A DNA stretch of 64,000 nt, from contig OZ320315.1 of NCBI GenBank assembly GCA_976226885.1, forward strand, positions 92,752,001 through 92,816,000, written 5' to 3'. Under the pieces are notes generated by a model that did no database searches, had not been told where the DNA came from, and saw only the letters and a program-made list of their open reading frames with translations. The stretch is from Iphione sp. A-MEVVRFRX5 (Eukaryota). Positions 58,288 through 62,123 of the stretch are shown here, piece by piece. Positions within the stretch are counted from its first letter, which is position 1; each line of letters begins with the position of its first letter. The position numbers and the translations under genes are program-made.

Positions 58288-58901
58288 ATGAACGGCCTTG
58301 TTGTTCTACTCGTGATAACGATAGGAGTACAACAATCTTGGTGCCAACAGGATTTGTGTCAACGCTGTGTTTGTTTGGATCGCAGCATACATTGTACCTC
58401 GCTCGCTACCAGTTTTTTCTACTCGCTGCAACATGCATACACTGGTTATCAGTATCTCTACCTCAACGCTCCATACGTTGTGGACGACCTGCCTTCCTTG
58501 CGCACACAGTTGCAACGTGTTTTACCCGATTTAGTTTACGTCGAGGCAATCGACCTGGATCATGTCAAGTTGTTTACAATTACTTATTCGACATCAACGA
58601 CTGTTGCACCGCTGACTGACATTGTTGATAATGATGGTGACGACGCTCGACCACCAGCTGGATCTACATTGCCGATAGAAATGCAGCATTCATCTGCGTC
58701 GCAGGTGCCGTCTTCTGATATGGCAATGTTTCTCATCACTGGCTGCATTCTCTTCATTCTGTTGATGGGGTTAATTTTATACCCATGTGTTCGCTTTGGT
58801 TTATATACCCGCTGCGTGCCCGATGGTCGTCATGATGGTCTTATGTCTTGTATCAACAGAAACAACTCATCGCCATCACCATCCCCGTCTTCTACCAATG
58901 T
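58288..58901 (+). CDS. Second type I membrane protein, exon 1: signal peptide, LRRNT-like Cys cluster, short ectodomain, TM helix
   Basis: MNGLVVLLVITIG signal; CQRCVC…IHC; TM MFLITGCILFILLMGLILYPCV; GT|GTAAGT phase-2 donor that also contains the TAA of the unspliced ORF (58903-05). Confidence 0.78.
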
Positions 58902-59103
58902 GTAAGTACTTACCCTCTCCCTCCTTAAAAGAAAGTTAGGTGCTAATGTGAATGTGTTTTTACATACACTCCATACATATATGTATATTCGTCTTGGATC
59001 TTGATAGAACTTGTATCTATTCTTTCTTTAAATATCCAATGAATAAATTTTTTTTTCTGTTCTAATTTTTTTTTTTTCCTTCCCTATCCCCCTCCCTTTA
59101 TAG

Positions 59104-61888
59104 TCTGCCTGCATTCAATGGACCAGCACTGTACCATTCACCGTCACCATCACCACCACCTCCACTACCGTCACCACCACCACCACCACCACCACCCGCG
59201 TCCGTGAGTGTCTCCACCACCTCCACCACCACACCACCGCTCCCTGCTTCGTTTGATACTACTACTACTGCTGCTGCTGCCGCCGCCGTCGCCGCTTTAT
59301 TACCTAACCCTATACCTGAAACCTCTGTGTTCGAGTCTATTCCACTTCACCCTATTCCTACCCACACTTCGCAGTCTAACATAGGTCCTACTTCTAACTC
59401 CATCTTCCCTCGCACGACCGTGTCCACCCGTGGCAATGTATCCAACCCAAACGGTGTTATGGATATACAACCCCAACTTGATTATCCCGAACATCTTCTC
59501 AATGACATGTCATATGCTTGTAATATTGGCAAAATATCATCCACCATGCACCCGCCAGGTTTGTCTCGAGTCTCAGACAGTGTATGTAACATTGGATACA
59601 ACAACAACAACGTCATTAACAATCCTAACAGTTTTGTTACTGAGGTTCAGCATGCACTCAATGACCCTTCTTCGCCTTCCTTCTATTGTCCTCCACCACC
59701 CCCATTTCCAAATCTGCAACCTGTAGGTCAAGGGCTGACTGCCAGTAGTTATGCACGTGATCCTTGCTCTGAATCTTCACTTATGCCACCTATTCTTAAC
59801 CGGTCTTCTCTACCTTCCAGCCCTGTTTCTCATAGTTCTAGCACCACTCCGACTTTTTCTACTGTCTACCGCCCATCACCACGTCGACCTCTTCGTCCTG
59901 ATATTGTTTATCCATCACCTGTACTAACTCCAAGACGACGTGTAACATCACCACCTTCGCCTCCTCTTCTTCCTCATGACGTGAGGATCCCACCTGTCGC
60001 CAGTTCCACGCCATTCGACCAGCCATCTTCGACTGCACTGTCTGTTGTTCCAACCACCTCCGCCGAGGTGTTTCCTGGAATTTCGTCTGCCAACACCTCG
60101 GCTCTACTATCGACTAGTGGGTTGGCTTGCGCCACTTTCACCCTGATTGCCTCGTCGACCAGATCATCACGTTCATCTGAAGCACGTGCCTCACTGGCCC
60201 CACCGTGTTCATCTGTTTTGAGTGGATCTGCTATGCCCGCACTCTCCTTCTATGATAGGTCAAGAGGTGGTAGTGGTGGTGGTGCTGCTGCAGCTACTGC
60301 TGCTGCTACCACTGTACCTCCACCACTTTCCAGCCCACGCCCATCGTGTTCTTCCTCAAAGTATGAAGAGACTTCTTCTTCTTCTTCTACTTTGCTTGCA
60401 TCCAGTCGACCAAAATTATCTGATCCTGCGCCACATACTCCCCCTACATGTTCGTCTTTACCCTCTACATCAATGCGTCAACATGAGCATGCTACAGCAG
60501 GGTTGGTTTCATCGTCTCCATCTCCACTTCTCCCGCCTGTGTTGGGTGAATCAACCACTCCACGTCCAACGACAACTGCATCTGTGTCAGTTGCGATGAG
60601 CTCGGATGAAAATACATCACCTTCCTTGTCTACCTCTACTGCATCCATGTCGACTGCTACAACTTTGAGTACTCCAGTAACGCCTCCTATCTCAACTAGC
60701 ACGTTGTCATCACCTATGTGCGCTCCATCTCAACCATCACCACAGACTACAGGACCAACAACAACATCAACAACAACAACAAAAGTAGCAGTATCAGCTG
60801 CAGAGGCGTTGTCACCACCATCCTCATCTACACCACATCAACCACTATCACCTTCTCGACCCTCACCCTCTCGCCCTGTAAGACCTCCTCCACCTCCACC
60901 ACCATCTCGGTCTTCACAGTCAGTTTTTCCTCATCCTGAATCCATCTCGACCACGGCTTCAGCTGCTTCTCCTGCGTCTACAAGCTCGATACTGGAGTCG
61001 AGTTCACCGTTTGTTACAGTCTTAGACAGTGAACCAGCTACTTCATCCGAACGAGTTGGCTCGCTTTCTCGATCAACAAATGACTCTCATGAAGAGTCTA
61101 GTAGTACATTGATCGCTTCACAGTTGGCTAGTCTCGATGGAATGTACGATGAACGCTCCATGATGAGCACTTCATCCACTGAGACATCTTCATCTGCGTT
61201 GCGGGGTGTGATAAGTGAAGTGTCACGTCCTGCCTTTGCTCCTCTTGCCATAGACTCCTCTGTAACAGAAGAGTCTGATGTCGAAGGTGCATCAACGTCC
61301 CATTCAACCAAGAACGAGCTTTGTAAAGTTCCAACTCCAATGCCAGTTACATCTGTATCTGTAGTTGAGCGTCTCAGATCAATTCTACCGTTACCTAGCG
61401 GTAGAGCTGTGCATGTACCTCCACCTCTTCCATCATCATCTGAAGATTATTGTCTAGGTACAGACTCTGATGACAATGTGGACCTGTGTACATTCAATGA
61501 GCCCTGTCGTCGTCATCACAGTAGTCAGTGTCCGATTCATCATGCTGTTGTAGGATGTGGTGCTGGTCAAATGACACCACCACCTACTAATGGTCGTCGA
61601 CGACGAAAGCGCCGATCTTCAAACATGTCTGATAACAGTGTCCCTTCTACACCTAGTGGGCGTGGGCGTGGCGCTCGTCCTGCTCACTTGGAAATGGGTG
61701 GTCATATGACACCACCTTCGACTCCTCTCACCCGACGTCGTCGAAGGCGGGGTAGTGATGCATCTACCCAATCCGACTCAAGCCTTCCGCCCCCACCGTC
61801 TTCTCCCAACCATAACCTGCGCAGTGGTCGTCAGTACGGTGGTTCTCCTCCCCCACCACCACCACCTCGTCCACGTCGATCGCCTCGT
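59104..61888 (+). CDS. Predicted exon 2: about 930-aa S/T/P-rich low-complexity cytoplasmic region
   Basis: CTAAT branch site, long pyrimidine tract and TTTATAG acceptor; phase 2 matches exon 1 (GT+T = Val); stop-free for 2.8 kb; CGT|GTAAGT donor at 61889. Confidence 0.7.
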
Positions 61889-62114
61889 GTAAGTGGCCTC
61901 ACTTTGGTCTATATTAAGGTATCATGCATTAATCTTTGTAAATCACATATCCACATTGCTTTATTTAAGTATTGAAATAGTTTGATCTGTGTTGTGCTCT
62001 CACATATTAATCTGTGAATAAACGTATACAATTAATCACATGTCCATGTCAATTTTTGATTCTAATATTGCTTATCTGATCCTTTTTTTTCTTTTTCTTT
62101 TTTTTTCTTTCCAG

Positions 62115-62123
62115 TTGAATTAG
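62115..62123 (+). CDS. Predicted terminal micro-exon (L-N-stop)
   Basis: CTGAT branch site, poly-T and TTCCAG acceptor; completes …RRSPR-LN*. Confidence 0.55.
   Translation: MN

Follow-up and report, generated by a model that had tools for sequence, protein, structure and literature searches.

The stretch analysed here, 64,000 nucleotides (nt) of Iphione sp. A-MEVVRFRX5 (assembly GCA_976226885.1, contig OZ320315.1, forward-strand positions 92,752,001 to 92,816,000; hereafter the window), contains a Maverick/Polinton element with the accessory gene that is the subject of this report. A complete Maverick houses this gene: the termini read AGTAGT...ACTACT, the terminal inverted repeats (TIR) measure 94 nt at 91% identity, and a 6-bp target site duplication (TSD), GGTGGG, flanks both ends. 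Judged from its own sequence and from its copies, it is an accessory gene, conserved and spliced, that belongs to a Maverick family with no named relatives. Its features and those of the surrounding locus are collected in Table 1.

Table 1. The studied gene, its splice sites and motifs, and the Maverick that carries it (positions in the window)
Feature	Position	Strand	Description
Exon 1	58288..58901	+	204 codons + 2 nt
Intron 1	58902..59103	+	Phase 2, 202 nt; donor GTAAGT at 58902, acceptor TATAG ending at 59103
Exon 2	59104..61888	+	928 codons open in the phase-2 frame; disordered tail rich in serine, threonine and proline (S/T/P), with short conserved motifs
Intron 2	61889..62114	+	Phase 0, 226 nt; donor GTAAGT at 61889, acceptor TTCCAG ending at 62114
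Exon 3, coding part	62115..62123	+	LN and stop; in many subfamilies Leu and a short Lys/Arg-rich end
Internal donor GTGAGT	59204..59209	+	Phase 0, inside exon 2
Internal acceptor	59791..59820	+	Branch-like CTTAAC, pyrimidine tract, TTCCAG, phase 2; AG ends at 59820
FESIPLH motif	59330..59350	+	5' of the first Met in exon 2, at 59459
RRPLRP motif	59882..59899	+	RRPLR in 13/13 representatives
Conserved C-terminal block	61331..61756	+	PMPxxSVSVVERLRS, Cys/His cluster, two Arg runs, then Ser-rich RRxS..SD repeats
NLRSGR	61814..61831	+	Includes LRSGR, the core by which LANA binds chromatin; in other subfamilies GYNLR, as in foamy virus Gag
RRSPR	61874..61888	+	Becomes HMGN/Dsup-like RRSxRL only through the second splice
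GCCATATT, presumed YY1-like element	58210..58217	+	Just 5' of the ATG
Divergent partner gene, first exon of its own spliced gene	56621..57655	-	Signal peptide, small head like leucine-rich repeats (LRR), transmembrane segment (TM), basic tail
Core module	45885..56207	+	pPolB with C-terminal NADAR, packaging ATPase, integrase with chromodomain, major capsid candidate of double jelly-roll (DJR) type, adenain-like protease
Maverick/Polinton element	43278..64000 in the window, reaching the equivalent of 65244	+	About 22 kb; AGTAGT start, TIR, TSD, core genes

Copies in the same genome served for comparison. The exon-1 region occurs there in 17 copies at 98-100% identity, and a search with the extracellular head of the protein gave 515 first-look candidates, 150 of which were scored. 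The head is carried by 75 of 76 further stretches around the gene, which with the window made 76 copies compared; L096, which has no match to the head and an alignment of only 867 nt with the family, and L037, a right-flank stretch, were left out. Clustering at 85% identity gave 17 clusters, two of them singletons that proved to be indel-bearing members of others, and thus about 15 subfamilies, between which heads are 62-90% and tails 25-38% identical. For the tail, 13 subfamily representatives were picked for the presence of RRSxR directly followed by GT (RRSxR-GT); other counts use 15 representatives.

The initial annotation had joined two open reading frames (ORFs) across introns at 58902-59103 (phase 2) and 61889-62114 into a protein of 1135 amino acids (aa) ending in RRSPRLN. 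All of these coordinates and frames hold, and the exon arithmetic (204+1+928+2) gives the same length; the ORF starts proposed at 58192 and 59204, by contrast, are GTG codons and not ATG, and 59204 is itself a donor hexamer. Exon 1 runs in frame up to a phase-2 GT(A/G)(A/G) donor in 72 of the 76 copies, exon 1 of the other four being interrupted by an early stop or a frameshift, and its last 25 residues are unrelated between subfamilies, yet the phase-2 donor is kept. The homologous phase-2 acceptor, one base 5' of a conserved start such as LPAFDGPAL, was the sole top-scoring AG by a simple pyrimidine score at 32 of 40 loci, joint top at 2 and within the top three at 39; a branch-like CTAAT lies at 59062. 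Intron 1 varies from 158 to 407 nt, its length being indivisible by three in 38 of 49 intact copies. Beyond it, the 928 open codons of exon 2 contrast with 59 and 27 stops in the alternative frames. The frame stays open to RRSxR-GT in 50 of the 76 copies (12 of the 17 in the window's subfamily), most of the remainder carrying stops or frameshifts, and the best acceptor 3' of that point opens exon 3 with Leu in 46 of the 50, Phe in three and Pro in one.

Differences between copies follow the same division. Indels keep the frame in 22/25 and 37/40 cases in exon 2 and in 2/16 and 1/8 in the introns, and the nonsynonymous rate (dN) lies below the synonymous rate (dS) in exon 2 for eight of ten within-subfamily pairs; between-subfamily ratios came from identity-filtered windows and were not used. 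The GT-AG sites thus keep position and phase across diverged copies, as expected of a spliceosomal multi-exon gene, and because they do so while intron length varies, we infer both splices and consider the two-intron gene very probable. The front of exon 2 must moreover be reached by splicing, since the FESIPL-type motif precedes the first Met of exon 2 in 10 of the 13 representatives; that Met is found at widely differing positions, 8 to 397. Translation of the long ORF from its own start, at 59459, which the initial annotation had named as the outcome that would undo its model, is for the same reason unlikely as the main source of product. In a second subfamily, an extra donor-acceptor pair after the stop codon (L041:7673-7798) may mark an intron in the 3' untranslated region.

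Exon 1 encodes a predicted signal peptide (about aa 1-19), an 84-aa head with four cysteines (58345-58596), a variable S/T-rich stalk, the TM (58720-58782) and a conserved YPC-x-R/H juxtamembrane motif. By hydropathy and alignment, the protein has an N-terminal hydrophobic leader and a single TM (residues 145-165 of exon 1) followed by basic residues, with no further TM; exon 2 is devoid of any hydrophobic 19-mer above 1.4. The earlier view, that the Maverick encodes a type I membrane protein whose inner tail is very long and disordered, is supported by the element, by the TM and by the open, S/T/P-rich exon 2. An extracellular mucin was ruled out for exon 2, which follows the TM and carries motifs of intracellular type.

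The head had been described as LRRNT-like, and this survives as a lead. Its predicted fold is confident (mean pLDDT 92), and the best LRR match is the ectodomain of GPIb (Z 5.0, rmsd 3.5, 69 residues aligned), the minimal LRR ectodomains of GPIb-beta/GPIX (3rfe, 8wfs) sharing an N-terminal Cys cap that aligns from the first residues; many further structure matches are LRR N-termini, with LRR entries at Z 3.5-4.7. The score is, however, tied with those of the unrelated HEN1 (Z 5.2) and Cas1 (Z 5.1), Foldseek returned no match at E 0.001 in PDB or BFVD, and no LRRNT or LRR profile was among the Pfam matches of 29 members at E up to 1. A PDB sequence search with the head gave nothing under E 0.4, and its best atlas score, 0.79, is a lead only. 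The homology search with the ectodomain that the initial annotation had proposed found no homologue: sequence searches with exon 1 or the head gave 0 matches outside the own genome.

Serine, threonine and proline make up 47% of the exon 2 tail in the window and 41-52% of tails overall, which measure 782-1058 aa in the 13 representatives. Within them lie short conserved motifs: the FxxI/V-x-L pattern in 12 of the 13, RRxS..SD repeats also in 12, and, in eight and absent from the window's subfamily, an RVxF with a hydrophobic pair, which we take to be a PP1-docking pattern. The cluster C-x3-H-x4-C-x2-H (61505-61540, plus strand), partly kept in most subfamilies, may form a small zinc site.

What the earlier account of the tail missed is a C-terminus with motifs of nuclear type. 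An LRS-type motif is found in 11 of the 13 representatives, against 0.21 expected by shuffling, and three of them read GYNLR, as in the GGYNLRPR of foamy virus Gag; in the LANA tether peptide, PGMRLRSGRSTG, the LRS is essential (PMC10450195). Just 3' of this motif, intron 2 falls exactly within RRSxR-L, so that splicing would assemble RRSxRL, often followed by a Lys/Arg run and comparable with the nucleosome-binding motifs of HMGN (RRSARLSA) and Dsup (PPRRSSRLT) (PMC12487698). RRSxR stands at donor 2 in 13 of 15 subfamilies, and because its codons vary freely, selection on it seems to act on the protein. The tail has an arginine-anchor motif in a disordered segment, as do chromatin tethers that bind the acidic patch (LANA, Gag, HMGN), and we hold it somewhat better than even that the tail binds nucleosomes. 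The shuffling numbers nonetheless overstate significance, because the patterns are post hoc, the representatives were chosen and the subfamilies share ancestry. A profile of the C-terminal 40 aa had no Pfam match and no meaningful PDB match.

Exon 2 also holds two candidate splice sites of its own. At the internal donor, GTGAGT in phase 0 is present in 64 of the 76 copies and donor-like variants, from a list compiled after seeing them, in 10; two copies have none. The Val-Ser pair there is spelt GTG AGT in all 10 subfamilies that have it, compared with 3 of 126 Val-Ser pairs elsewhere in exon 2, and its two codons rank first and second in codon invariance among 96 conserved degenerate columns, 26 control columns from the head reaching at most 0.67. 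By its codon usage, the conserved SVSV near the start of exon 2 is thus a motif at the DNA level. On the plus strand of the window between 57600 and 63300, GTRAGT occurs three times only, at 58902, 59204 and 61889. For the internal acceptor, a blind scan found a single aligned column scoring at least 20 in 8 of the 13 representatives, the next best doing so in two. All 13 have a pyrimidine tract with TTCCAG (12) or TTCTAG (one), in phase 2 and 52-109 nt 5' of RRPL, and the phase-2 pattern recurs in 72 of the 76 copies; TCC-AGY encodes only 26 of 557 Ser-Ser pairs overall, compared with TTCCAG here in 12 of 13. It is likely that at least one of the internal sites is used.

From these sites a nested set of products can be predicted. 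Joining donor 1 to acceptor 1 and donor 2 to acceptor 2 would give the full 1135 aa, and joining donor 1 to the internal acceptor 896 aa, without LPAF, FESIPL and, in other subfamilies, the RVxF block. From the internal donor, splicing to acceptor 2 would yield 240 aa, while splicing to the internal acceptor would shift the frame to a stop within 1-46 codons, again a short form; the short forms from this donor would lose every nuclear motif. The membrane anchor is retained in all predicted forms.

The idea of a switchable tail, proposed in the initial annotation, is therefore kept through these nested sites, and its proposed mechanism is not. That mechanism was retention of intron 1, leaving a 205-aa short form, and it draws on an in-frame stop and, in the window's copy, on an AATAAA at 59042 within the intron. 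Any phase-2 GTRAG donor, however, gives xxG-TAA or xxG-TGA, so the stop follows from the donor consensus itself and is uninformative on retention; only 5 of the 13 representatives have AATAAA or ATTAAA inside intron 1, and the internal sites of exon 2 offer another, conserved route to a short form. We rejected retention as the switch and consider the retained form very improbable. Somewhat different is the possibility that the tail is additionally made anchor-free, as an ordinary soluble nuclear protein, either from an internal promoter or because a leader further upstream is spliced to one of two acceptors, acceptor 1 and the internal one. Two conserved acceptors do open into the long frame, and about half of the 15 representatives have donor-like hexamers at loose positions 175-275 nt 5' of the first Cys codon; yet a crude scan for donors that are aligned and conserved saw none upstream of the TM among the representatives, nor any at that place in the window's copy, and with the first Met positions as scattered as they are, this too is improbable.

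How, then, could a membrane protein come to act on chromatin? We tentatively propose, at something short of an even chance, a type I membrane protein whose tail is released to bind nucleosomes, with the internal splice sites switching between a long, a medium and a short tail. The long and medium forms would be nuclear regulators parked at the membrane; after shedding or engagement of the small head, the tail would be severed, could enter the nucleus by its Arg/Lys runs and might dock at the acidic patch of H2A-H2B, in the way that LANA, foamy virus Gag and MLV (murine leukaemia virus) p12 do. Docked, it could alter host chromatin or keep element DNA on chromosomes, and the short form would be a tail-less version of the same surface protein. 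Release is favoured because head and stalk resemble a surface protein and because known viral tethers act as soluble pieces, MLV p12 for instance after its cleavage from Gag (PMC9040877). With more reserve still we would call the protein a receptor-shaped, membrane-anchored nucleosome tether that combines LANA/foamy-Gag-type with HMGN-type motifs and whose nested splice sites, in adenovirus style, give a long form that reaches chromatin, a medium form lacking the docking block and a tail-less form.

Comparison with known tethers has two sides. KSHV (Kaposi's sarcoma-associated herpesvirus) LANA, the chromatin-binding sequence (CBS) of foamy virus Gag, MLV p12 and IE1 of human cytomegalovirus (HCMV) likewise end a disordered region with a short LRS/YNLR motif of arginine-anchor type, in a persistent or integrating element (PMC9040877, PMC10450195). 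None of them is a membrane protein, however, and in the present protein, a putative tether, no DNA- or capsid-binding partner domain was identified. With HMGN and Dsup it shares an RRSxRL core in a disordered protein, one subfamily even reading RRSAR-LRS across the junction (PMC12487698), whereas the match amounts to six residues put together over a splice junction.

A second explanation keeps the gene and its splice switch and leaves the protein uncut: the long form, in the endoplasmic reticulum (ER) or inner nuclear membrane, would tether host or element chromatin, reaching it either by means of a nuclear localization signal (NLS) carried on a linker that is long and unfolded, or in open mitosis. 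In having a TM, a long variable disordered linker and a basic signal at its end, the protein resembles yeast Heh1/Heh2 with their NLS-linker-TM design (PMC4695851), no conserved cleavage site was seen in the tails, and the RVxF pair and the RRxS repeats suggest mitotic control. On the other hand, signal peptide, disulfide head and S/T-rich stalk resemble those of surface proteins, passive entry would be difficult for so large a tail (near 95 kDa), and two papers favour diffusion and retention in metazoan cells (PMC4460150, PMC4460149); we regard an uncut tether as fairly unlikely.

If the tail instead never leaves the cytoplasm, it would be a scaffold of short motifs for trafficking and for kinase or phosphatase docking, acting with the partner LRR-TM protein in the manner of adenovirus E3, and the Arg motifs would be phosphosites or incidental. 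Type I topology does leave an uncut tail in the cytosol; FxxI/V-x-L, RRPLR and the YPC juxtamembrane motif are conserved; one subfamily is without the nuclear-type motifs, and the partner gene is always adjacent and divergent. The C-terminus nevertheless has two distinct motifs of acidic-patch type next to each other, and an intron of its own, followed by a very small last exon, is preserved for the completion of RRSxRL; we hold a scaffold to be unlikely. Adenoviruses, a related virus lineage, do encode accessory type I membrane proteins in E3, and E1A-type nested splicing places alternative donors and acceptors within coding sequence; no similarity in sequence or fold to either was seen, and E3 tails are short.

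Several observations weigh against a released, splice-switched, nucleosome-binding tail. In the L086/L087 subfamily the tail is about half as long, neither nuclear-type motif lies within the stretch compared and the internal acceptor is missing there, which makes this subfamily a ready contrast for studying function; L074/L075 keep GYNLRS only, the L041 group is without LRS, and L093/L094 have none of the listed internal donors. The motif patterns were derived from the same alignment, from representatives chosen for RRSxR-GT in subfamilies that share ancestry. Triplet repeats explain part of the frame-keeping indels in exon 2, and dN equals or exceeds dS in two of the ten within-subfamily pairs. 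Short Arg motifs give no guarantee of acidic-patch binding (PMC10606924). As for release, adenain-type patterns occur in 3 of the 13 tails at unrelated places, and a conserved viral-protease site in the tail was accordingly rejected; we know of no simple consensus for intramembrane proteases.

Membrane proteins are not as unusual a cargo for Mavericks as the initial annotation held, since nematode Mavericks carry the fusogen MFUS-1, together with intron-bearing cargo (10.1101/2022.07.12.499685; 10.1101/2023.08.22.554363). MFUS-1 is likewise Maverick-encoded, with a signal peptide and one TM, and the wasp/krma cargo likewise consists of intron-containing genes. MFUS-1, however, has a large gB-like ectodomain and a short tail, unlike the 84-aa head, low-complexity stalk and 970-aa tail described here, and identity with such a fusogen was rejected for want of that ectodomain. 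The wasp/krma genes, again, are variable host-derived passengers, whereas the present gene keeps one position in all subfamilies sampled. Adintoviruses have membrane-active genes of other kinds, namely PLA2X, GasderminX and Cupiennin (PMC8502044). Intact vertebrate Mavericks, in the accessible text of Barreat and Katzourakis 2021 (PMC8097293), have no introns reported in their genes; ours shares with them the core gene set, the (AGT)2 termini, the 6-bp TSD, an accessory region beside the core and a size within their 12.7-24.6 kb, and differs in accessory genes predicted to have several conserved introns with nested alternative sites. The accessible parts of two further accounts (PMC11071296 and 10.64898/2026.10.13.758929) hold nothing resembling this gene, and no published description of such a gene was found in a literature that was mostly open-access, with supplements such as the genome maps of PMC8502044 outside it.

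Always adjacent and divergent across copies, the partner gene encodes a head more clearly LRR-like than the one studied (Z 6-6.8, with structure matches mostly to LRR proteins); profile comparison of the two heads found no similarity (probability 0.5%). The partner (56200-57655, minus strand) seems to be spliced too, its long ORF ending near a conserved donor between F-E/Q and V in most of the 15 representatives, and its two small further exons (...GNRE and TIRMDDMGWGEH...) are common to subfamilies, the last one nearing the protease gene on the opposite strand. In the 630-nt gap between the two membrane genes (57800-58280), ATTTATTGG, CTGATTTATTGC, TTTCGGATTAG and GCCATnTT are common to subfamilies, and shared elements of this kind are consistent with a bidirectional promoter. 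GCCATATT likely lies near the transcription start; 13 of the 15 representatives have a motif like it, 118-169 nt 5' of the first Cys codon.

Among the core genes, the integrase stands above its Pfam cut-off (rve, 5e-9) and the rest were called by motifs, weak Pfam matches or atlas likeness: Pox_A32 at 4e-4, Peptidase_C5 at 0.063, polymerase motifs in pPolB, and for the major capsid candidate (54332-55729) an atlas score of 0.97, with a DJR-like family in 30% of one cluster. The C-terminus of pPolB is a NADAR domain (50298-50705, plus strand; Pfam E 2.5e-11, above the cut-off). Its frame is open 5' of the ATG across an extra C2H2-like finger, with an acceptor-like site near 45742, so that a spliced N-terminus is possible. 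Directly inside the left TIR lies a 151-nt direct repeat of 95% identity at a spacing of 172 nt (43396-43754), followed in the left arm by a multi-exon gene with a basic coiled-coil exon and acidic exons (44249-45900, plus strand). Right-arm ORFs of unassigned family (63240-64000, minus strand, and L037:1211-1543, minus strand) are conserved in a second subfamily and converge on the studied gene; the 239-aa right-arm ORF had no Pfam match.

In summary, Mavericks are commonly annotated as sets of intronless ORFs, and genes like the one described here would as a result be split or missed. That its nested splice sites are conserved suggests regulated gene expression of a virus-like kind in a large family that has lately been expanding, with 17 near-identical copies and several hundred candidates in this genome. 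If the tail binds nucleosomes, the gene would provide a direct and inexpensive handle on how these elements reach chromosomes or stay on them and on what they do to the host cell, and it would constitute a direct link from membrane to chromatin of a kind not described for Polintons.

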